Assembly (NCBI GenBank): GCA_964623775.1
Contig: CAZUVH010000001.1
Span: forward strand, 284,784 to 348,783
DNA length: 64,000 nucleotides
Origin: an uncultured Candidatus Saccharibacteria bacterium
Lineage (GTDB): Bacteria > Patescibacteriota > Minisyncoccia > Phycocordibacterales > UBA2100
Reading direction: 5' to 3'
Part shown: positions 1 to 9,578 of the stretch, piece by piece
Layout: each line of letters starts with the position of its first letter
Position numbering within the stretch: the stretch's first letter is position 1
Position numbers and translations under genes: made by a program
The notes under the pieces: generated by a model
The model's database searches: none
What the model was told of the DNA's origin: nothing
What the model saw: the letters and a program-made list of their open reading frames with translations, nothing else

Positions 1-995
1 GCGTCGGCAACACACCCAAGCATTTCCAGGATTATGCCGCCGAGTTGAAATCAAGATTCCTCAAAAAGGGTGATTTTGTTGTCGAAGTCGGCGGGAATGA
101 CGGCGTACTTCTCGTGGAGCTTAAGGATGATATGAAAGTGCTCAACATTGAGCCGGCGAAAAACATCGCACCAATCGCGCGATCTCGCGGCGTGGATACG
201 CTCAACGAATTTTTCAATGAGGATATTGCAATAAAAGTTACGGAGAAATACGGTAAGGCAAAAGTCGTACTTGGTAACAACTCGATACCCCATATTTCCG
301 ATCAAGAGAGCGTTATGAAAGGTTTTAAGGAGTTACTTGCCCCTGATGGCGTCGGTGTCATCCAGGCCCACTATCTCGGGTATATACTCGAGGATCTTGG
401 GTATGGTGATATTTACCACGAGCACATGGCGTATTACGCGATGCTGCCGCTCGTGCCTTTTTACAAACGGCTCGGGCTTGAGATATTCGATTACGCGATG
501 AACGATTTTCACGGAGCTTCGATTCGTATCTATTTCGGACACGAGGGTAAGCACCCCGTTTCGCCAAAAGTCGCAGCACTCGTAGAAGAAGAAAAGAAGA
601 AGGGATGGGACAAGCTGGAAACGTATCAGAAGTTTGCGGAGGAAGTAGAGAAATCTAAAAATAAATTGGTCAAAACGCTCGCTGATCTCAAAAAGCAGGG
701 CAAGCATATCGCTGCGTATGGTGCGGCAGCAAAAGCGGTGCCAATTCTCAACTACGCCGGAATTACAGAAAAAGATGTCGAATTTTGCGTAGATGGCTTG
801 CCATCCAAACAAGGCCTTTGCATGCCAATGTCGCACATACCAATCATTTCGCCGGAGGAAGCATCGAAGCGCCAGGTGGATTACTATCTACTACTTGCGT
901 GGACGTTCCGTGATCACATTGCTGAGAAAGAAAAAGACTTCGTCGCGAAGGGCGGCAAATTCATCATGCCGATTGGCAACATCGAAATCTTCTAG
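1..995 (+). CDS. NDP-hexose C-methyltransferase family protein (TylCIII-like), 5'-truncated at window edge
   Basis: The frame is open from position 3 (…VGNTPKHFQDYAAELKSRFLKKGDFVVEVGGNDG…). VVEVGGNDG matches the C-methyltransferase motif I. The C-terminal Rossmann-like 'C-methyltransferase' domain is present (HIAAYGAAAKAVPILNYAGI…VDGLPSKQG…YYLLLAWTF). The N-terminus lies upstream of the window. Confidence 0.75.
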   Translation, partial: VGNTPKHFQDYAAELKSRFLKKGDFVVEVGGNDGVLLVELKDDMKVLNIEPAKNIAPIARSRGVDTLNEFFNEDIAIKVTEKYGKAKVVLGNNSIPHISDQESVMKGFKELLAPDGVGVIQAHYLGYILEDLGYGDIYHEHMAYYAMLPLVPFYKRLGLEIFDYAMNDFHGASIRIYFGHEGKHPVSPKVAALVEEEKKKGWDKLETYQKFAEEVEKSKNKLVKTLADLKKQGKHIAAYGAAAKAVPILNYAGITEKDVEFCVDGLPSKQGLCMPMSHIPIISPEEASKRQVDYYLLLAWTFRDHIAEKEKDFVAKGGKFIMPIGNIEIF

Positions 996-1040
996 TTGGA
1001 TTTCGTTTGCTCAGTTTGGTTAAACCATTATAGTTACTCA

Positions 1041-2198
1041 ATGAGAAGTGAGTTTCTTAGATTTGGGGCCCCGAAATTCGATAAAAAGGAAATCGCCGAG
1101 GTCGTGGATACGCTCAAAAGCGGGTGGGTGACGACGGGTCCCAAGACGCGGAAATTTGAAGAAGATTTTGGAACATACGTTGGGGTTTCGCATGCACTCG
1201 CGCTCAATTCTGGTACAGCCGCACTACATCTGGGACTTTTGGCTGCAGGTGTTGGGCCAGGGGATGAGGTCATCGTACCGGCGATGACATTTGGCGCATC
1301 GGCCAACACGGTCGTCCATTGCGGTGCCAAGCCCGTGTTTGTCGATTGCGAGCGCGACACGATGAATATCGACCCCACGAAAATTGAGGCCGCGATTACG
1401 GGCAAGACGAAGGTGATAATGCCTGTGCATATGGCCGGGCGTGCATGCGACATGGATGCGATATTCGCGATCGCCAAAAAACACAATTTGAAAGTCGTAC
1501 AGGATGCGGCACATGCCGTTGAGACCGAATACAAAGGGAAAAAAGTCGGGGCGTATGGAGATTTCGCCTGCTACAGCTTCCATGCGATCAAGAATCTCAC
1601 CACGGCTGAAGGCGGCATGCTCACGATGGAGGATGGGGCGACGTACAAAAAATGCAAGACGTTATCGCTGCATGGCATGAGTGTCGACGCACATGACAGG
1701 TATGGCACGTCAGGGTACAAGCACTATGAGCATGTGGAAGCAGGTTTTAAATACAACATGATGGACATCCAGGCCTCTCTTGGAATCCACCAGCTCGGGA
1801 AAATCGAGAAGAATTGGAAAAAGCGTCGGAAGATTTGGAACGCATACATGAAAGATTTGAGAGGTTTGCCAATCATTCTCCCCGCTCCCATCCGGAAAGA
1901 TGAGCGTCATGCATACCATATGTTTACGATACTTATCGATACCGATAAGACGGCCGTGACACGCGACCAGTTCTTGAATGAAATGGCGAAGCGAAATATT
2001 GGTACCGGCGTGCACTTTCGCGCCGTTCATTTACACCCGTATTATCGAAAGACGTACGGGTATAAAGAGGGAGATTTTCCCAACGCCGAATGGATCGGCG
2101 ATCGCACCGCATCAATCCCGATAATGCCGTATCTTTCGAAGCAAGATGTGACCGACGTCGTAGAGGCGATCAAGGATATTTTCTCCAAGAACACATGA
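1041..2198 (+). CDS. DegT/DnrJ/EryC1/StrS family PLP-dependent sugar aminotransferase
   Basis: Family motifs are clear (GWVTTGPKTRKFEEDF…ALNSGTAALHLGL…VIVPAMTFGASAN…FSFHAIKNLTTAEGGML). The start is taken at MRSEFLRF (1041), not the upstream ATG at 996 that overlaps the previous gene. Confidence 0.9.
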   Translation: MRSEFLRFGAPKFDKKEIAEVVDTLKSGWVTTGPKTRKFEEDFGTYVGVSHALALNSGTAALHLGLLAAGVGPGDEVIVPAMTFGASANTVVHCGAKPVFVDCERDTMNIDPTKIEAAITGKTKVIMPVHMAGRACDMDAIFAIAKKHNLKVVQDAAHAVETEYKGKKVGAYGDFACYSFHAIKNLTTAEGGMLTMEDGATYKKCKTLSLHGMSVDAHDRYGTSGYKHYEHVEAGFKYNMMDIQASLGIHQLGKIEKNWKKRRKIWNAYMKDLRGLPIILPAPIRKDERHAYHMFTILIDTDKTAVTRDQFLNEMAKRNIGTGVHFRAVHLHPYYRKTYGYKEGDFPNAEWIGDRTASIPIMPYLSKQDVTDVVEAIKDIFSKNT

Positions 2199-3349
2199 GT
2201 CCGGAACCCAGGAAAATAAAAGTCGCCTTGATGAGCTATGCGATGGATGGTCGTCAGGCAAAGGGGAGTGCACTCTCGACCCATAGGCTTGTCGAGAGAC
2301 TCGTTAAGAATCCTGAGCTTGAAGTGACACTCGTCCATTTCGACCCGAGCGACGACCCGCTCTACAAGCAGGCGAGAGAAATTATAATGCCCCAATTCAA
2401 ACTCCCGGCAGGCACCCGTTTTTTTCGTACACTCGCTTTTTTTTGGAAATATCGACACGAAGATTTCGATGTCATCCACTGGTTCCAGTCACGCGTATAT
2501 CCTTTCTTCTGGATGGCACCAGCTCGTAAAATCATCGTGACCGCGCATGCGGGCGGGGATATTACGTCCCCGGGCAAATTCCCGTTTTCTCGCAGAATGT
2601 TCAACTTCGTACTCAAACATTTCAACAATCGTGTCGATGCGCTTGTCGGGGTCTCGAATTTCGGCAGGGAGGAAATCATAGAGGCATATGGGGCAAATCC
2701 GGACAAAGTACACGCACTCATTCACTACAATGGCGGAGCGGAAGAATATAAGCCAATGGACAAAAAACAGGCGCTTGAACACATGCGAGAGAAACACAAT
2801 ATTAGTGGCCCATACATTCTCGATGTCTCGCGGCTCAGTCTTCACAAGAATGTAACGACGCTCATAAAAGCATATATATTGTTGCGAGATCAGTATCCCG
2901 ACCGAAGGGAGTTACTCGTCGTCGCGGGTGGGCCTGATAACGACGCAGAGGCAGTGTATGCACTCGCGCGTGACTCAAAATATGCGGCCGACATCCGCTT
3001 TATCGATTATGTCGCGCAGGAAGACATGAACGCACTTTATTCCGGCGCAGAAGTGTTCGCATTCCCGTCCCTGAGTGAAGGTTTTGGCATGCCGCTCATC
3101 GAGGCATTCGCCTCCGGTACGCCCATCGTGACATCCAATGTTGCTTCGCTGCCGGAAGTGGGCGGAGACGCCGTATTGCTGGTAGATCCAAAAAAATCTG
3201 AGGAACTCGCCAACGCGATACACAGGCTTTTAACAGATGACGATCTCCGAAAGTCATTGATCGAAAAAGGACTTGAGCGCTGTCGTGTATTTACATGGGA
3301 TTTGGCCGCTAAAGAAGTGAGTGATCTCTACAGGCACGTCGCCGGATGA
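2195..3349 (+). CDS. glycosyltransferase family 4 (GT-B, GT1 clan)
   Basis: The C-terminal GT4 signature is present (EGFGMPLIEAFASGTPIVTSNVASLPEVGGDAVLLVDP). The start at MSPEPRKIKV forms an ATGA overlap with the upstream stop. The 2090–2194 extension in the ORF track is not supported. Confidence 0.85.
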   Translation: MSPEPRKIKVALMSYAMDGRQAKGSALSTHRLVERLVKNPELEVTLVHFDPSDDPLYKQAREIIMPQFKLPAGTRFFRTLAFFWKYRHEDFDVIHWFQSRVYPFFWMAPARKIIVTAHAGGDITSPGKFPFSRRMFNFVLKHFNNRVDALVGVSNFGREEIIEAYGANPDKVHALIHYNGGAEEYKPMDKKQALEHMREKHNISGPYILDVSRLSLHKNVTTLIKAYILLRDQYPDRRELLVVAGGPDNDAEAVYALARDSKYAADIRFIDYVAQEDMNALYSGAEVFAFPSLSEGFGMPLIEAFASGTPIVTSNVASLPEVGGDAVLLVDPKKSEELANAIHRLLTDDDLRKSLIEKGLERCRVFTWDLAAKEVSDLYRHVAG

Positions 3350-3380
3350 AGATGTCTGTGAATTGCTATATACTCACTCC

Positions 3381-3746
3381 ATGGAAATGCCGATATCGGA
3401 AATAATCGACCGGTGTAGTATTTTGCAGTTGAAGCGCGAGCGCTTGCCACTACACGATGCTTTGCAGAAAGAGTGTGAGCGTTTCGAGGCACATATTACC
3501 TCGCACCCCCTCCATCAAAGGATTAATGAACACTTGAAGACACTCAAAGAGGTGAATGGGAAAATTTGGGACCTTGAATCGGATATTCGTAAGGGAAAAG
3601 AGGGCGAATTGGGATTAGAGGAGGTCGGCCGCCGGGCACTTGCAATCCGTGATCTGAACGGTGAACGTATTCGACTAAAGAACGCGATTGCAGAAGAAAT
3701 GGGGGAATTTGGAGACGTCAAAGTCGACCACGCGAGTGATTCGTAG
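3381..3746 (+). CDS. hypothetical protein (small, predicted helical/coiled-coil)
   Basis: This 121-aa ORF sits in a tight array between the GT4 and a methyltransferase. It is charged and helical (…GKIWDLESDIRKGKEGELGLEEV…). I recognise no family. Confidence 0.45.
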   Translation: MEMPISEIIDRCSILQLKRERLPLHDALQKECERFEAHITSHPLHQRINEHLKTLKEVNGKIWDLESDIRKGKEGELGLEEVGRRALAIRDLNGERIRLKNAIAEEMGEFGDVKVDHASDS

Positions 3747-3757
3747 ATGCGCTTCAT

Positions 3758-4708
3758 ATGACTCCCACCCCAGCCTCCTGTCCTCTGTGTAATGCGGAAG
3801 CGCCGAAAACTACTGGGCGCACGCACACCGATGGAGCGACAACGTACGCCCAATACGGCTGTGATGCCTGTCTTGTCCAATTTTGGTGGCCTCTTAAGAA
3901 TCCGGGAGCGGAATGGTATCGTACACACGAAAAATACGGCAATCGCAATGCAGATCCCGTGTGGAACGCAACGACGAACCACAAAAAAACGATGACGGTA
4001 CTTTCGAGACCCGGGGCCGTTCTTGATATCGGATGCGGTATCGGCAATTTCCTTTCTCTCGCGAAGGAGAAGGGGTGGCAGATAGCTGGTATCGACTTTG
4101 ATACGGATGCAATCGCATCTGCGAAAAAAGTGACAGAAGTCGACGATTTTGAGGCAGCAGATGTTGTTACATATGCCGCACGTCATCCAGATAGAAAATT
4201 CGACCTTGTGACATTTTTCGATGTTCTCGAACATGTCGATAATCACAATGAATTCATAGGATCGGTAAAATTACTTCTCAAGCCGGGCGGGCATATCGCC
4301 ATGAGCATGCCGTACCGCAAGCACGCACTGTGGCTCATGAGGGCAGATGTGCCGCCGATGCACCTTACGTGCTGGGATCGCGAATCACTGGAGCGCTTCC
4401 TCGATGCGCGGGGTTTTGATGTTGTGTATATGCGCCGTAGTTCCGAAGGTATATGGCCGATCATCATGAAGCTGCGCTTCAGGTACGGGAACTGGTCATC
4501 GCTCGGCGCGGTGAATGTGGCTCGCAAAGCATCAGGCAACTCGTCAGCCGGTCCACGTAATCGCCCACTGCTCGTCCGACTCGTACACATAGCCGCGAAA
4601 GCCAAAGACATTATCCTCTTTGGACTTCCTGCGCTTATTATCTGGCTTGTCATGCTGCCGAGTCCGAAGCGTTACATCGATCTTTTCGCGATTGCCAAGA
4701 TGCGTTGA
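3758..4708 (+). CDS. class I SAM-dependent methyltransferase with N-terminal Cys4 zinc ribbon and C-terminal membrane anchor
   Basis: The N-terminus has CPLCN…GCDAC. Motif I is VLDIGCGIGNF, followed by …LLKPGGHIAM. The C-terminal hydrophobic segment is LFGLPALIIWLVMLP. Confidence 0.8.
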   Translation: MTPTPASCPLCNAEAPKTTGRTHTDGATTYAQYGCDACLVQFWWPLKNPGAEWYRTHEKYGNRNADPVWNATTNHKKTMTVLSRPGAVLDIGCGIGNFLSLAKEKGWQIAGIDFDTDAIASAKKVTEVDDFEAADVVTYAARHPDRKFDLVTFFDVLEHVDNHNEFIGSVKLLLKPGGHIAMSMPYRKHALWLMRADVPPMHLTCWDRESLERFLDARGFDVVYMRRSSEGIWPIIMKLRFRYGNWSSLGAVNVARKASGNSSAGPRNRPLLVRLVHIAAKAKDIILFGLPALIIWLVMLPSPKRYIDLFAIAKMR

Positions 4709-4739
4709 TTGAGCAGTTGTTGTACAGTGACCATACTTT

Positions 4740-5990
4740 ATGCGGTACACCGGAAAAATTCGGTTTGTCGATAGGTACATCGGCTCTATTGTGCTTTTTT
4801 TGTTTACGATCCTGCATTTTTTCCGTCGCGTCCCGAAAGATAGGAAGGTGCAAAATGTTCTCATAATCGAGCTGGTTGAGATGGCGGCAGCAGTCATGGG
4901 ATACGCTTCGGTATTACACATCAAGAAGCAGATACCCGATGCGCGTATATTCGTACTGTGCACTGAAAGTACAAAGGAGGCGTGGATGCTGCTCGACGGA
5001 ATCGATAAAGATGATGTCGTGACACTCGACAATAAAAGCACCCTGACACTTCTCGCATCTATCTGGCGAGCGACACATGCACTATCCAAAAAGAACATCG
5101 ATCTGATACTCGATTTCGAGCTCTTTACACGAATCTCGGCGATTCTCTCGCTGCTCATCAGGACGAAGCTGCGCGCGGGATTCTACGGCTATACGACAGG
5201 TGGGCTCTATCGCGGTAATTTCCTCGATGTGAAATGCAATTTCAACCAGAACATGCATATCAGTAAAAATCTGCTCGCACTCACAAAATCCGCGCTCGAT
5301 CCAAATCCGCAACACTACAATTGGGATGGTCCGATTTTAAATAGTGAAATTGTTGTTCCAGAATATGTATCCGATCCGGTGATGCGCGCAGAAGTAAAGA
5401 AGAAGGTCTATGAGGCAATAGGCGGCAATTCTGAGCACCTCATCGTACTCGCTCCTACTGTCGGTCAGATGCTCCCCATGCGCGATTATCCGAAGGAGAT
5501 GTATGTCGAAGTGATCAAGAAATTACTCGTCGTATATCCGATGCATCACATACTTCTCGTCGGTACCCCGTCCCATAGCGGAGTCGGTAGATTCATAGAA
5601 AAGGCGGTCAGTGCGAAGAAGTGTGTAAATTTCTGTGGCAAGACAGCTACTCTGCGTGAACTCCTAGAGCTCTTTTCCATGGCTGAGCTCCTCATCACCA
5701 ATGACAGTGGTAATCCGCATTTTGCGGCGATGGTCGGACTCAAAAACGTAGCGCTCTTCGGACCGGAGACACCTTTTATGTACGGACCTTTGGGCAAATC
5801 GGTCTGCCTTTTCGATTTTTTCCACTCGAGCCCGAGCATTACCTCATACAATCACAAGAATCCTCCGAGTGATTCCAATGCCTCATTGCGAAGCATCTCG
5901 CCTGAGCGCGTTGTGAAGACGGTGCAACTCCTGATGGAGGGTAATGCGAGATACGGGACGGTCAATAACGAGGTACCATATCTGCTTTAG
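4740..5990 (+). CDS. glycosyltransferase family 9 (ADP-heptose:acceptor heptosyltransferase-like)
   Basis: The GT9 C-terminal motif is present (LLITNDSGNPHFAAMVGLKNVALFGPETP). The N-terminus is VLIIELVEM…GYASVL. The exact start is uncertain (4740 or a downstream ATG). Confidence 0.8.
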   Translation: MRYTGKIRFVDRYIGSIVLFLFTILHFFRRVPKDRKVQNVLIIELVEMAAAVMGYASVLHIKKQIPDARIFVLCTESTKEAWMLLDGIDKDDVVTLDNKSTLTLLASIWRATHALSKKNIDLILDFELFTRISAILSLLIRTKLRAGFYGYTTGGLYRGNFLDVKCNFNQNMHISKNLLALTKSALDPNPQHYNWDGPILNSEIVVPEYVSDPVMRAEVKKKVYEAIGGNSEHLIVLAPTVGQMLPMRDYPKEMYVEVIKKLLVVYPMHHILLVGTPSHSGVGRFIEKAVSAKKCVNFCGKTATLRELLELFSMAELLITNDSGNPHFAAMVGLKNVALFGPETPFMYGPLGKSVCLFDFFHSSPSITSYNHKNPPSDSNASLRSISPERVVKTVQLLMEGNARYGTVNNEVPYLL

Positions 5991-5993
5991 GCA

Positions 5994-6451
5994 GGAATTT
6001 TCAATTTACAATTCTCAATTTCCAATCAATTTACAATGAAGGAAATTTCAAACAAAAAGACTTATGATCTTGAAGAGCGAACGGCCGTTTTTGGCGAGTC
6101 AGTCATTTTGCTTTGCAGGGAAGTAAAGCAGGACGCAATTACTAAGCCGCTAGTAAATCAGCTCGTTCGCTCCGCCACAAGTATTGGTGCAAATTACATG
6201 GAAGCGAACGGCGCTAGTTCGAAGAAAGATTTTGCCAACAAGATCTTTATCTGCAAAAAGGAGACTCAAGAGACGAAACATTGGCTACGAATGCTTGCAA
6301 CAAGTGTTCCAGTGTTGCGCGACGAGATTCGAAAGCTCTGGCAGGAATGTCAAGAATTAACCCTCATATTTCAGAAAATCGCATCTTCAAGCCGGTTGAA
6401 AAATTGAACATTTGACCTTCAATGAAAATTGAAAATTAAGAATTGAAAATT
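5994..6451 (+). mobile_element. putative insertion cassette carrying a four-helix-bundle (23S-IVS-type) gene, bounded by AT-rich 'caatt/gaaaatt' repeat termini
   Basis: The left terminus is aattttcaatttacaattctcaatttccaatcaatttacaATG. The right terminus is caatgaaaattgaaaattaagaattgaaaatt. Both termini recur at 8456–8600 with the gene interior missing. Confidence 0.45.
6036..6407 (+). CDS. four helix bundle protein (TIGR02436-like, '23S rRNA intervening sequence protein' family)
   Basis: The family hallmark is present (…VRSATSIGANYMEANGASSKKDFANKIFICKKETQETKHWLRM…). It is a 123-aa protein, as is typical. Confidence 0.85.
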   Translation: MKEISNKKTYDLEERTAVFGESVILLCREVKQDAITKPLVNQLVRSATSIGANYMEANGASSKKDFANKIFICKKETQETKHWLRMLATSVPVLRDEIRKLWQECQELTLIFQKIASSSRLKN

Positions 6452-6478
6452 CCTCATGTTTTGAGGTACTATTAAAAC

Positions 6479-7372
6479 ATGAGGATTTTAGTCACGGGCG
6501 GTACAGGATTTATTGGCTCAAATATCGTCGAGGCGCTTATTGCGCGCGGCGATGAGGTATTGATCACGGGACACGACGCAGAGCAGCAACCAAAGGGATT
6601 TACCGGAAAATTCTTGCAACCGTCGCTCATCGGTATAGATTGGGATTCGATAGGATCCCTTGACGCCGTCATCCATGAGGCTGCGATCAACGAGACGCAA
6701 TCGAAGGACGAAAAGGAAATGATGCGTGCCAACGTGGATTCCTCACTCGCACTTTTTGAATATACTGTAAAAAATGGCTGCAAGCGAATTGTGTACGCAT
6801 CGTCGACAGCCGTATATGGTGACGGGCCGACACCATACAAGGAAGACCAAGAACTGCAGCCACTTACACCCTATGCCAAATCGAAGGCCAAACTTGACGC
6901 TGAAGTGAAGAAATTTGCCACAAATAATCCGTCCATAACAATCGTCGGTCTGCGGTATTGCAACGTCTATGGACCGGGCGAGTCACATAAAGGTAATCGC
7001 GCGAGCATGATCTACCAGCTGGCGCAGCAGATGAAAAAAGGAAATCCGCGACTTTTCAAATCTGGTGAACAAAAACGCGACTTTATTTATGTAAAGGATG
7101 TTGTCGTTGCAAACCTCCTGGCGCTCGAATCAAAAGAAAATGCCCTTGTAAATTGCGGCTCGGGCACTGCGTCATCGTTTAATGAGATTGTCGCGATTCT
7201 GAATACGGAAATGAATTTGAGTCGCGTTCCCGAATACTTTGACAATCCTATCGCTGCTACCTACCAAAACCACACCGAGTGTGACATGTCGCTTGCGGAA
7301 CAAAAGCTCGGCTTTATTCCCGCTTTCGATATTAAAAAGGGAATCAAGGATTACGTGGCCTCCGGTCTCTAG
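6479..7372 (+). CDS. hldD: ADP-L-glycero-D-manno-heptose 6-epimerase
   Basis: The N-terminus is MRILVTGGTGFIGSNIV. There is a strong match to E. coli HldD/RfaD across VGLRYCNVYGPGESHKGNRASMIYQLAQQMKKGNPRLFKSGEQKRDFIYVKDV. The gene is 297 aa. Confidence 0.85.
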   Translation: MRILVTGGTGFIGSNIVEALIARGDEVLITGHDAEQQPKGFTGKFLQPSLIGIDWDSIGSLDAVIHEAAINETQSKDEKEMMRANVDSSLALFEYTVKNGCKRIVYASSTAVYGDGPTPYKEDQELQPLTPYAKSKAKLDAEVKKFATNNPSITIVGLRYCNVYGPGESHKGNRASMIYQLAQQMKKGNPRLFKSGEQKRDFIYVKDVVVANLLALESKENALVNCGSGTASSFNEIVAILNTEMNLSRVPEYFDNPIAATYQNHTECDMSLAEQKLGFIPAFDIKKGIKDYVASGL

Positions 7373-7776
7373 TTGTTGAGGATCTTCTTGAGCACGTTGG
7401 TGGTTGATCGGCCCGGTACGACCTTCGCGAGGACGATCTTGCCGCCGGTTTTTTCGACAGCGTCTTTTTCAATAATTTGATCGATAGTGCGATCGCCGCC
7501 TTTTACATGCACATGAGGCTGAAGTTTGCCGAGCCATTCGATCGGCGTCGTTTCATCAAAAATGAAGACCGCGTCAACACACTTAAGAGAGGTAATGATT
7601 TCAGCACGCTCAAGCTCGGTGTTGATGGGGCGAGAGTCGCCTTTGTTGCGTTTGACCGATGCGTCAGAATTGACCCCGACGATCAGGATGTCACCATGGC
7701 GTTTGGCCTCTTCGAGGTAGCGGACGTGGCCGACATGGAGGATGTCGAAGCAGCCGTTGGTGGTCACGACGGTCAT
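7369..7776 (-). CDS. hldC: D-glycero-beta-D-manno-heptose 1-phosphate adenylyltransferase (stand-alone HldE domain II)
   Basis: The sequence is MTVVTTNGCFDILHVGHVRYLEEAK…ILIVGVNSDASVKRNKG…RPIN (HxGH cytidylyltransferase-like fold, RfaE-II pattern). The start is at 7776. The longer ORF extending to 7962 has an unsupported 62-aa extension. Confidence 0.8.
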   Translation of the reverse strand: MTVVTTNGCFDILHVGHVRYLEEAKRHGDILIVGVNSDASVKRNKGDSRPINTELERAEIITSLKCVDAVFIFDETTPIEWLGKLQPHVHVKGGDRTIDQIIEKDAVEKTGGKIVLAKVVPGRSTTNVLKKILNN

Positions 7777-7953
7777 TTTATGGGCTTTTGCAGCCCTGGA
7801 GAGCGCCAATGCCGCCCTAAACGGCAATACTTTCGCTCCAGACGATTTTGCGATACGCTTCGGGAATCGCGGCCTTCCCGCGCTCTTATGGGCTCCAAAA
7901 GCACTATTTTTAACTCTGCGTTTCAACGTCATACAGATGTGGTGGCTCAAAGT

Positions 7954-8475
7954 ATGCAACACATCATGTCGGATGTCGAGAAGTCCGGAAAGTTGCTTGT
8001 GACAGCGCTAAAGAGCGGAAAAAAGGTTTTGGTATGTGGCAATGGAGGCTCCGCTGCCGATAGCCAGCATCTCGCAGCCGAACTATCAGGCCGCTACAAG
8101 AAAGAACGAAAGGCATTAGCCGGAATCGCGCTCACGACTGATACGTCAGCACTTACGGCGATCGGAAACGACTATGGTTTTGAAAATATCTTTAAGCGTC
8201 AGATTGCAGCACTTGGTATGAAAGGCGATGTTCTTGTAGCTTTTTCGACGAGTGGTTCATCGCCCAATATACTCGCGGCGATTGCAGAGGCTCGCGCGTG
8301 CAAAATGAAAGTGATTGTACTCACGGGCATAAAAGGGAGGGGGCTACGCAAAAGTGTCGACGCTCTTATTTGCGTCCCTACCGAAGAAACTGCTCGTATC
8401 CAGGAGATACATGAACTTGTGTATCACTCATGGTGCGAATACATCGATTCAAAATTTCCAATTCCCAATTCCTAA
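7954..8475 (+). CDS. gmhA: D-sedoheptulose 7-phosphate isomerase (SIS domain)
   Basis: There is a near-collinear match to E. coli GmhA (KVLVCGNGGSAADSQHLAAELSGRY…GNDYGFENIFKRQIAALGMKGDVLVAFSTSGSSPNILAAIAEAR…KVIVLTG…ARIQEIHELV). The start could be ATG 7954 or GTG 7942. The last ~8 codons (SKFPIPNS*) are encoded by repeat-element sequence. Confidence 0.9.
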   Translation: MQHIMSDVEKSGKLLVTALKSGKKVLVCGNGGSAADSQHLAAELSGRYKKERKALAGIALTTDTSALTAIGNDYGFENIFKRQIAALGMKGDVLVAFSTSGSSPNILAAIAEARACKMKVIVLTGIKGRGLRKSVDALICVPTEETARIQEIHELVYHSWCEYIDSKFPIPNS

Positions 8476-8600
8476 TTTTCAATCAATTTACAATGAATCA
8501 AGCCTCAAACACATACCACTTAGGTCTAGTTGACGGACTCCTTGAGACATTAAAAATTGATAATTCAATGAAAATTGGAAATTAAAAAATTGAAAATTCT
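8456..8600 (+). mobile_element. decayed second copy of the four-helix-bundle cassette termini (interior deleted; 30-codon remnant ORF 8493–8585)
   Basis: Positions 8456–8492 (aaaatttccaattcccaattcctaattttcaatcaatttacaATG) match 5996–6038. Positions 8562–8600 (aattcaatgaaaattggaaattaaaaaattgaaaattct) match 6415–6451. The remnant ORF reads MNQASNTYHLGLVDGLLETLKIDNSMKIGN. Confidence 0.45.
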
Positions 8601-8606
8601 GAACCT

Positions 8607-9578
8607 ATGAAAAACGATCTCTCAAAACATTTCTCGCAATTTCCCAAGAAGAGGGTACTCGTCATCGGTGATGTAATGCTCGATGAATACATCGGGGGTA
8701 CGGCGGATCGTATCTCACCGGAAGCGCCGATACCGGTGCTTTTGCAGAAAACTGTACGCTACATCCTCGGCGGTGCTGGCAATGTGGCCGCCAATGTCGC
8801 ATCGCTTGGCGGAAAGGTCACTTTGCTCGGCATTGTCGGTAATGACGCGCGGAGTAAGAAACTCAGAGAGCTCTCGCGCGAAAAAAAGATCCAGCCGAAG
8901 TTTGTGAATGACGCAAAACGACCGACCACCACCAAGATCCGCTTTGTGGTCGGTCATCATCAGCTCGTGCGCATGGACATTGAGGAGACCCGATCAATCA
9001 GCGGGGACCTTGAAAACCGCGTCATCAAGGCAATTCGAGCTCTGCCGAAGCACGACATTGTTATCGTCTCGGATTACGCAAAAGGATGTATCACGAAGAA
9101 AGTAATGGATGAATTGCGAAAGAAATTTGGGGCGTCGTCGATTCTCGCCGATATGAAACCCGCGAACGCGCATTTTTTCAAGAATATTCTTGCGATCACA
9201 CCTAATCTAAAAGAGGCAGCCGAACTCACGGGTATTCACGCCACGAATAATGCGCTTGCCGATCGCACCGCAAAATTACTGCAGGAAAGTTTCAATACAT
9301 CCATTATCCTCACGCGCGGTGAGCATGGAGTGACAGTTCTTGAGAAGACCGCAGACAAGCCAGTGCATTTTGGCGCGGAACTCCTCACGGTACGCGATGT
9401 GACTGGCGCGGGCGATACACTCGTCGCTGCGTTTGCGCTCATGTATTCGACAGGAGTTCCATTTGTCGAAGCGGCGGAAGCGGCCAATTTTGCAGCGGGG
9501 ATCGTGGTAGGTGTCGGCGGTACGCACGCGCTCACGAGAAAGGAGTTTCAAAAAAGTTATGATAACTTTACATCATAA
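8607..9578 (+). CDS. hldA: D-glycero-beta-D-manno-heptose 7-phosphate kinase (stand-alone HldE domain I, PfkB family)
   Basis: The N-terminal half is VLVIGDVMLDEYIGGTADRISPEAPIPVL…LGGAGNVAANVASLGGKVTLLGIVGND. The C-terminal PfkB motif is VTGAGDTLVAAFA. Confidence 0.85.
   Translation: MKNDLSKHFSQFPKKRVLVIGDVMLDEYIGGTADRISPEAPIPVLLQKTVRYILGGAGNVAANVASLGGKVTLLGIVGNDARSKKLRELSREKKIQPKFVNDAKRPTTTKIRFVVGHHQLVRMDIEETRSISGDLENRVIKAIRALPKHDIVIVSDYAKGCITKKVMDELRKKFGASSILADMKPANAHFFKNILAITPNLKEAAELTGIHATNNALADRTAKLLQESFNTSIILTRGEHGVTVLEKTADKPVHFGAELLTVRDVTGAGDTLVAAFALMYSTGVPFVEAAEAANFAAGIVVGVGGTHALTRKEFQKSYDNFTS

Follow-up and report, generated by a model that had tools for sequence, protein, structure and literature searches.

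The 64,000 nucleotides analysed here (the window) come from an uncultured Candidatus Saccharibacteria bacterium (contig CAZUVH010000001.1, positions 284,784 to 348,783) and contain, among heptose genes, a gene for a small four-helix-bundle (4HB) protein of the family PF05635/TIGR02436, bracketed by repeated sequences that we call arms. We propose, with a probability of roughly 0.6, that this gene with its arms is an intact member, and a second copy lacking the open reading frame (ORF) an internally deleted member, of a widespread family of selfish cassettes similar to the intervening sequences (IVSs) of rRNA genes, whose protein probably binds the heptads of its own cassette. The full design consists of around four to five heptamers of the type AATTTTC, the PF05635 gene, and around four to five inverted heptamers of the type GAAAATT.

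The unit of the arms is thus a heptamer on the left and its complement on the right, in short tandem arrays of about four head-to-tail units, degenerate at positions 5-7, like the simple sequence repeats known as short tandemly repeated repetitive (STRR) sequences. In the intact cassette the two arms are mutual inverted repeats (5993-6051 against 6396-6454; complementarity is 71% over 59 nt and rises to 88% in a core of 24 nt), that is, complementary termini able to form a stem, as in rRNA IVSs, and the region of the 4HB start codon (6026-6042) is complementary (88%) to the inner right arm (6416-6432). The left arm starts 2 nt past the stop codon (5988-5990) of the preceding GT9 gene, and the right arm carries TGA in all three frames. 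A preliminary description of this stretch had reported that the same termini surround the intact gene and, further downstream, a short remnant ORF. This was confirmed: over 59 nt each, identity is 81% between the left termini (5996-6054 and 8453-8511) and 73% between the right termini (6396-6454 and 8542-8600), and the 16-mer CAATCAATTTACAATG occurs exactly twice in the 64 kb (at 6023 and 8480; 0.09 occurrences expected). The inverted-repeat relation between left and right termini is an addition to that description. The same text had conceded that its interpretation would fail if the termini were a generic intergenic motif, and this possibility can be rejected, since the motif and the period-7 arrays are confined to the four arms of these two places. 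When up to one mismatch was allowed, AATTGAAAATT gave 15 matches in the window against 2.85 expected, 11 of them within the two copies; the only period-7 arrays with at least 3.5 units detected by Tandem Repeats Finder were those at 5996-6037, 6423-6451, 8453-8477 and 8569-8598; and the motif is absent from the other ~60 gene junctions of the window.

The second copy, between gmhA and hldA, is an ORF-less, shortened form of the cassette, for which we use the term mini. The 5' part of its remnant ORF is identical in 28 of 32 positions to the start of the 4HB ORF in a related locus (L088), its reading MNQASN.TY.L agrees with the family consensus MxQxSNxKxYDL, and the remainder aligns with the 3' untranslated region (UTR) and the inner right arm. 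Because the 5' end of a 4HB ORF is joined here to the 3' UTR and right arm, the mini is an internal-deletion derivative, as had been suggested. The remnant belongs to a sub-lineage (MNQASN...) different from that of the intact copy (MKEISN...), and the 30-codon ORF as such has no match in Pfam or NCBIfam. The 3' end of gmhA has been remodelled by the cassette: its last seven codons and stop (8453-8475) lie within the left arm of the mini, which supplies them, in agreement with the earlier claim that the GmhA tail is encoded by the left terminus. The conserved domain of GmhA (model position 153/154 of TIGR00441) ends at "...CEYI", with I164 of a 173-aa reading. P0122, the GmhA of another locus (L083), likewise runs into a left arm (…SKFSIFNSQF…).

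The design seen in the window is shared by relatives throughout the candidate phyla radiation (CPR). A protein search returned at least 8000 CPR relatives of the 4HB protein with 65-85% identity, those named in the results including Kaiser-, Giovannoni-, Nomura-, Campbell-, Levy-, Wildermuth- and Nealsonbacteria and thus many CPR lineages. From 80 genome loci and 80 metagenome loci that were retrieved, ~150 homologous loci were examined. Nearly every 4HB homologue is flanked by both arms in the same layout; when strict chains of exact AATT cores were counted in 68 elements, the left array was found in 61 and the right array in 63, four units being commonest and AATTTTC the consensus. Left and right arms align in inverted orientation over ~53 nt with 76% identity (63 elements). 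The surroundings, in turn, are highly varied: the 64 upstream genes fall into 56 protein clusters and the 66 downstream genes into 57 (~88% distinct), and cassettes were found in more than 100 different genomic contexts, some of which are conserved among related genomes (L004-L007; L008, L009, L026 and L064). Neighbours are almost always co-oriented with the 4HB gene (61/64 upstream, 59/66 downstream). The element takes up the whole junction: the median distance is 4.5 nt from the stop codon of the upstream gene to the first AATT and 8 nt from the last AATT to the next start, and the arm overlaps the upstream stop or ORF end in 24 of 98 cases. All full-length copies encode the 4HB protein alone, and no transposase-encoding element with matching terminal inverted repeats (TIRs) was found among them. 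They are not arranged as integron cassettes, given the repeats on both sides, the solitary insertions, the scattered junctions and the diverse neighbours. Both window copies sit between protein-coding genes, and no rRNA context was found in the 20 related loci tested for it; nor were relatives found in the 2.9 M viral contigs of IMG/VR. In a contig binned as Pacearchaeota (L048:1094-1212), an intergenic array of 17 units (AATTATC / ACTTATC / AGTTATC) was observed 1.8 kb from an AATTTTC-type cassette.

Comparison of individual loci defines the cassette as a discrete unit with sharp boundaries at the outer heptamers, movable among gene junctions; at orthologous sites it may be missing, complete or decayed. 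A Campbellbacteria genome has two copies (L013 and L015) that are 95% identical over 575 nt and have unrelated flanks, the identity stopping at the outer heptamers, that is, at the arm edges. The gmhA/hldA site of one relative (L085, GmhA 84% identical) is empty, the two genes overlapping by ATGA, and two others (L083, GmhA 78% identical, and L086, 73%) carry a full-length 4HB cassette exactly at the junction. At GT9|hldD, the junction of the intact copy in the window, L086 has a mini without ORF, so that the positions of intact and decayed copy are interchanged between the two genomes. The remnant in the window mini is too short to show orthology with the full elements of L083 and L086. Around 25 more minis of 85-200 nt were found in 714 kb of related loci, many of them keeping the start ATGAATCAA…. 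The claim that the 4HB gene and its termini form a cassette is thus borne out by the variety of contexts, by the duplicate ending at the arms and by the empty and full sites. To present the paired copies of the window as direct evidence for mobility in this genome, as in the preliminary description, was an overstatement, as they are only 73-81% alike, belong to different sub-lineages and come from a family in which synonymous divergence (dS) is saturated between most members. A further proposal, that the cassette split hldD/hldC/gmhA from hldA, is not supported: the mini adds only ~130 bp, the four genes are still contiguous, and L086 has the same gene order with the cassette states swapped.

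Some additional observations concern these loci. The L086 region (1-8297) holds one full cassette and three minis, the junctions occupied being GT9|hldD and those after gmhA, after hldA and after a HepT gene, and its heptose cluster also contains an inserted Fic gene and an MNT/HepT pair. In L013 and L015 (2880-3000 in both), an insert of ~125 nt bounded by CCCGTTAGAGG...CCTCTAAACGGG separates the real ATG from the canonical start position; with ATGAAT on both sides, it resembles a nested palindromic mini-element with a 6-bp target duplication. At an orthologous intergenic site of two Kaiserbacteria genomes (L005:5160-5254 and L007:4576-4672), one genome has an AATT-type mini and the other a different heptad element of the same length (AGCCACT AGGGACT ... 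CACTAAT CACTAAC).

The 4HB protein of the window scores 57.2 bits with PF05635 (cut-off 33.8) and 75.3 bits with TIGR02436 (cut-off 24). Its AlphaFold2 model (pLDDT 90.3) has helices at 12-28, 36-58, 63-90 and 92-121, and Foldseek gave as best match 2RLD (BT_0352; TM 0.76-0.86), followed by 2GSC (Xcc0516) and 4DWL, the Avd protein of a diversity-generating retroelement (DGR); another DGR Avd structure, 8UB7, was also among the fold likenesses. The protein has the family motif GxxRxxxSxxxNxxE (Zhang et al., 2013; PMC3936711) as R45-x3-S49-x3-N53-x2-E56, residues that are (nearly) invariant in the family, Q42 taking the place of the leading G. The chains matched were A-E of 2RLD, an entry of five chains, A-E of 2GSC and C-E of 4DWL. 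Xcc0516 and Avd have been described as pentamers, and by analogy with the solved relatives and Avd the 4HB protein is probably a homopentameric barrel. The Avd pentamer holds an RNA stem-loop just downstream of its own gene region, the same residues of all five protomers gripping flipped-out bases (bioRxiv 10.1101/2023.10.23.563531). Among 4HB genes, dN/dS is 0.05-0.10 where measurable, dS being saturated for most pairs, and the protein is therefore strongly constrained; the arms, for their part, have kept the heptamer consensus across a divergence that saturates dS. Arms as well as protein are under purifying selection. In the annotated 4HB proteins P0091, P0045 and P0118, C-terminal extensions (e.g. 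...RSRIENSMKIKN) correspond to read-through into the right arm; like the GmhA tail of P0122, they are artefacts that the cassette introduces into the annotation.

A covariation between the 4HB protein and its own heptamers suggests, from sequence comparison, that the two are in contact, and is the strongest evidence at hand for such a contact. Position 7 of the heptamer is concordant between the arms in 55 of 57 elements (C/C in 46, G/G in 9, discordant in 2). The majority base at this position was compared with residue 113, located in helix 4 (Q113 in the window protein, codon 6372-6374), in 137 distinct elements. With Q113 the majority base is C in 72 of 76 elements, and with G113 it is not C in 33 of 34 (G in 17, A in 6, T in 1, mixed in 9). 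The less frequent residues gave C with N113 (2/2), C or T with H113, T or A with S113 and T with A113. When all protein columns were set against heptamer positions 5-7, Q113 was far ahead (mutual information 0.85 bits, z=28.8), followed by A116 and S117, which as residues i+3 and i+4 share its face of the helix. The replacements of Q113 by G, S and A need different codon changes, and all coincide with the loss of C at position 7; a weakly resolved neighbour-joining tree scatters the G-type elements, with seven Fitch changes.

Period-7 arrays also accompany PF05635 genes outside CPR, where these genes are found wedged inside operons on plasmids of Nostocales, Oscillatoriales, Chloroflexota, Bacteroidota and Bacillota. 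In a set of 18 such loci, inverted period-7 arrays, usually of ~4 units, flank the gene in 15; their density is 3.25/kb near the gene (within 300 nt) and 0.10/kb elsewhere in the loci, a 31-fold local enrichment. No arrays of period 5, 6, 8 or 9 were found near these genes, and only three anywhere in the loci. The arrays on the two sides of a gene are rotations, in inverted orientation, of a single heptamer, which is specific to the paralog (e.g. TAATTCG, CAATTCG, GGAGGTC, GGGTGTG, CAAGTCG, AAAAGTA, GATTTAC, CAAAATT), to the point that two paralogs 2.4 kb apart in L180 have different units. These two (L180:3932-7482, GGAGGTC and GGGTGTG) bracket XisH, XisI and a tyrosine recombinase, with Tn7-like TnsA/TnsB adjoining, and XisH/XisI or integrases are also next to the 4HB genes of L176, L182 and L183. 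In the Nostoc locus L176 (1641-1907) the downstream array is expanded to ~38 units of ACTTGCG, and in Aulosira (L182:3907-4414) the heptamer is that of the CPR G-type (CAAAATT / AATTTTG) with the array order reversed relative to the gene. Several non-CPR 4HB genes lie inside defence operons (L167, L168, L170, L171, L172, L174, where the gene is not annotated, and L175), at junctions such as cas2|cas1 (on the opposite strand), DISARM drmD|MmeI-type, DUF1156|Swt1-HEPN, helicase|methylase and hsdS|hsdR, and another occupies the junction between an adaptor and a permease of the resistance-nodulation-division (RND) type.

Intergenic heptameric repeats have been reported to be in unexplained excess in bacterial genomes, and in Xanthomonas these repeats have mostly four units, form 70-75 convergent pairs per genome and are commonest between co-oriented genes, with related repeats in Nostoc, Calothrix (STRR) and Beggiatoaceae (PMC4692102; PMC4679880). 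No published link between such repeats and PF05635 genes was found in the searchable literature. We advance as a tentative generalization, whose chances we place slightly short of even, that PF05635 proteins are sequence-specific readers of heptad tandem repeats, that gene and inverted arrays make up a class of selfish cassettes extending across phyla, and that ORF-less descendants explain at least part of the excess of paired heptameric repeats (STRR in cyanobacteria, GGGAATC in Xanthomonas and others).

The inverted arms could also be viewed as the two strands of an RNA stem. Predicted folds beat those of shuffled sequences (z -3.7 for the whole intact cassette; z -4.2 on the plus strand and -6.6 on the minus strand for the mini, which folds into a hairpin). 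A strand-specific RNA helix was considered on account of the folding energies of the mini, -52 kcal/mol on the minus strand against -33 on the plus strand, and was rejected, as there is no family-wide strand bias: in 63 elements the mismatches between arms are mostly transversions, and strand-biased wobble was not significant (115 vs 139, Wilcoxon p=0.07). Moreover, the right arm of an element is no better a complement of its left arm than those of other elements are (score 21.4 vs 22.3, median rank 43/78), so that the inverted symmetry reflects the same unit arrayed in opposite orientations. The arms are arrays of independently conserved heptamers and not a co-evolving helix. The invariant AATT cores and the conserved inner complementarity of 14-17 bp, which includes the start codon, would still allow pairing in RNA.

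The coordinates of both copies and of the neighbouring genes are collected in Table 1.

Table 1. Positions in the window of the two cassette copies, their parts and the adjoining heptose genes.
Feature	Position	Strand	Remarks
GT9 heptosyltransferase-family gene	4740..5990	+	stop codon abuts intact cassette
Intact cassette (left arm, 4HB gene, right arm)	5993..6454	+	462 bp; inverted repeat 5993-6051 / 6396-6454
Left arm of intact cassette	5993..6035	+	AGG + AATTTTC AATTTAC AATTCTC AATTTCC AATCAAT TTACA, then ATG
4HB protein gene	6036..6407	+	123 aa; PF05635 / TIGR02436, Avd-like fold
Right arm of intact cassette	6416..6454	+	CCTTCAATG AAAATTG AAAATTA AGAATTG AAAATTCCT
hldD-like epimerase	6479-7372	+	
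hldC-like cytidylyltransferase	7369-7800	-	
gmhA, sedoheptulose-7-P isomerase	7888..8475	+	probable true start 7888 (195 aa), inferred from homologue lengths
Mini (ORF-less, internally deleted copy)	8447..8603	+	157 bp, between gmhA and hldA
Left arm of mini	8453..8492	+	AATTTCC AATTCCC AATTCCT AATTTTC AATCAAT TTACA; encodes GmhA tail KFPIPNS + stop
30-codon remnant ORF (MNQASNTYHL...)	8493..8585	+	first ~45 nt from 5' end of 4HB ORF
Right arm of mini	8542..8603	+	ends 3 nt before hldA ATG (8607)
hldA-type PfkB heptose kinase	8607..9578	+	downstream neighbour of mini

The region 4740-9578 thus holds an ADP-heptose-type gene set (GT9, hldD-, hldC-, gmhA- and hldA-like) in a Patescibacteria genome. 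The ORF called at 7477-8475 is an artefact, since GmhA homologues have ~190 aa and the best start is the ATG at 7888; with this start an 87-nt divergent region remains between hldC and gmhA. For the 4HB protein as well as for GmhA, the closest among the matches listed belong to Candidatus Kaiserbacteria. With regard to the surroundings of the intact copy, a promoter-like TTGAAA-18-TACTAT faces outwards in its right arm, and the left arm has a mirror-image counterpart on the minus strand. A 14-bp hairpin (6451-6485, plus strand) would pair the last bases of the cassette (AAATTCCTCATGTTTT, including TTCC) with the hldD start region (AAAACATGAGGATTT) and is predicted to make the start codon of hldD inaccessible. 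Both outer ends are adjoined by short hairpins that end in AGG (5981-5995 and 6452-6466); a preference for insertion beside terminator hairpins was rejected, as no enrichment was found in 95 elements (11% vs 12%). Rfam gave no match at the window copies, even at E<=1, and PADLOC (defence) and PHROG (phage) gave no match either.

In the scheme that we favour, the cassette would be co-transcribed with its host operon, as inferred from the bias towards the sense orientation and the lack of a convincing promoter of its own. The arms would pair into an AU-rich stem burying the 4HB start codon, a likely substrate of RNase III that would insulate or excise the insert, as in rRNA IVSs. The 4HB protein, probably a pentamer, would bind the heptads of its own arms, as RNA or as DNA, and this binding may serve for feedback control, for the assembly of a ribonucleoprotein or synaptic complex, or for both. 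Spread to new junctions would be rare and dependent on an activity supplied in trans. In the second copy of the window, the ORF was lost by internal deletion, and the left arm now supplies the tail of gmhA.

Some of these features would equally be expected of a miniature inverted-repeat transposable element (MITE), with the arms acting as TIRs for an unlinked transposase encoded elsewhere and the 4HB gene as passenger cargo whose function has nothing to do with the arms. The cassette is indeed small, bounded by TIRs and devoid of an internal transposase, it has sharp boundaries and abundant ORF-less derivatives, and its inverted arms of repeated units resemble the multi-site ends of transposons. 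We nevertheless consider this explanation unlikely, because the supposed cargo is always a PF05635 gene, in ~150 CPR loci and 18 loci of other phyla and with lineage-specific heptamers, and because residue 113 tracks position 7 of the repeat, which is not expected of a passenger; no target-site duplication (TSD), no candidate transposase nearby and no relatives in the viral contigs were found either. Similarly improbable is an IVS-like insulator working at the RNA level only, where the arms merely pair and are cut by RNase III and the protein, with another role or none, does not read the repeats. The complementarity of the arms over ~53 nt, folds that beat shuffles and a start codon within the conserved inner stem fit such a device, as does the fact that rRNA IVSs are cut by RNase III and that the Coxiella S23p protein is seemingly not made (PMC4990558). 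However, a plain stem needs no 7-nt periodicity, yet period 7 alone recurs across phyla; arm complementarity is not element-specific, the mismatches are mainly transversions without wobble bias, and the protein, besides covarying with the repeat, is strongly constrained by purifying selection.

That the 4HB gene is an ordinary resident, with a vertically inherited promoter or operator and a terminator as flanks and a second site that is a chance or regulatory look-alike, would agree with the promoter-like sequence, with the age of most copies and with the conservation of some contexts. This is very unlikely: the presence/absence data (orthologous sites that are empty, full or hold a mini) largely refute it, and the more than 100 unrelated contexts, the intragenomic duplicate with sharp ends, the ORF fragments kept by the minis and the absence of the motif from ~60 other junctions of the window also speak against it. 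We give hardly any credence to the remaining idea, a DGR remnant or accessory in which the 4HB protein would be an Avd working with a nearby reverse transcriptase (RT) and template repeat. It draws on the Avd fold, on the frequency of DGRs in CPR and on the binding of Avd to an RNA stem-loop downstream of its gene, whereas no ORF with RT motifs was found in the 64 kb and no repeat resembling a template/variable repeat (TR/VR) pair in 5900-8700, and the neighbours of the family are diverse housekeeping genes.

Several observations weigh against the selfish, repeat-binding cassette that we propose. No recognisable TSD, a feature that the preliminary description had suggested looking for, was found at L013/L015 or by comparing empty and filled gmhA/hldA sites, where the insertions are old and the AATT edges ambiguous, and no transposase, recombinase or RT is encoded in the cassette or in the 64-kb window. 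Saturation of dS indicates that most copies are old, so that "mobile" refers to an evolutionary history and not to a demonstrated current activity. Genes in the host genomes are strongly co-directional, which in part confounds the bias towards the sense orientation. Compensatory evolution between the arms of one element was looked for and none was found, which weakens the RNA-stem part of the scheme. The G-type proteins share the C-terminal signature GKIVSSLK, and shared ancestry may inflate the residue-113 association; in addition, a specificity code in helix 4 is not evident in the non-CPR paralogs, where this segment does not obviously track the heptamer. The support for binding, processing and transposition is comparative throughout.

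PF05635/TIGR02436 is a 30-year-old orphan family with at least 8000 close relatives of the window protein in CPR, with solved structures and with a relative, Avd, that is essential for DGRs. The locus and its relatives tie together two old puzzles, the function of PF05635 and the heptameric intergenic repeats. If this link holds, the ligand of the family would be identified, and an explanation would be at hand for the 4HB genes wedged in operons (heptose, cas2|cas1, hsdS|hsdR, drmD|MmeI-type and RND pumps). Cassettes at protein-coding junctions would be linked to rRNA IVSs, and natural orthogonal protein/repeat pairs would become available. There is also a warning for annotation, as C-terminal tails such as SKFPIPNS in GmhA are derived from the cassette.

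With respect to known systems, the DGR Avd proteins (4DWL, 8UB7) share with the 4HB protein the four-helix fold, pentameric homologues and an association with RNA in cis, in their case a stem-loop near their own gene; they differ in sequence (~11% identity), and the cassette has neither RT nor TR/VR, its proposed ligand being heptad arrays on both sides. Bacterial MITEs (Correia/NEMIS) are likewise small, TIR-bounded and intergenic, can fuse to gene ends, are transcribed with their neighbours and have many non-coding copies, and the cassette has TIRs and a small size without a transposase, as they do; in the cassettes, however, even the full-length parent encodes no transposase, the TIRs consist of tandem heptamers, the orientation is almost always sense, and a TSD was not found. 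An analogy, and only that, can be drawn with the Omega repressor of pSM19035, a small oligomerising protein that recognises successive units of 7 bp, whether direct or inverted; as a plasmid-borne dimer of the ribbon-helix-helix type, Omega is only loosely comparable, and its fold is unrelated to that of the 4HB protein. Closer in DNA structure are the heptameric repeats of cyanobacteria (STRR), Xanthomonas (GGGAATC), Nostoc (GGGGATT) and Beggiatoaceae (TAACTGA), which have period 7 and ~4 units, are intergenic, lie between co-oriented genes, often in convergent (inverted) pairs, and are transcribed (PMC4692102; PMC4679880). What sets the window and CPR cassettes apart is that their arrays bracket a PF05635 gene or its remnant.

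As far as the searchable literature shows, neither a reading of heptad repeats by PF05635 proteins nor a class of such cassettes extending across phyla has been reported before, and among known elements the ORF-bearing rRNA IVS comes closest. Such IVSs, in the 23S or 16S rRNA genes of Leptospira, Coxiella, Brucella and CPR, are ~430-760 nt long, have complementary termini and a single PF05635/S23p ORF, include short ORF-less forms, are sporadic and are regarded as selfish and possibly mobile (PMC4990558; PMC11270868). Those with an S23p ORF have terminal inverted repeats and are excised by RNase III, and they have long been proposed to be mobile elements, the ORF aiding mobility (PMC4990558); in CPR, PF05635 ORFs are found in insertions of both 16S and 23S rRNA genes (PMC11270868). 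They differ from the cassettes described here in their host, which is an rRNA helix (helix 9, 25 or 45 of 23S rRNA, or 16S rRNA) instead of a junction within a protein-coding operon, and in their termini, which form a unique 28-bp stem where the cassettes have heptamer arrays. Finally, while the ORF of the Coxiella IVS is decaying, that of the cassette is under strong purifying selection.

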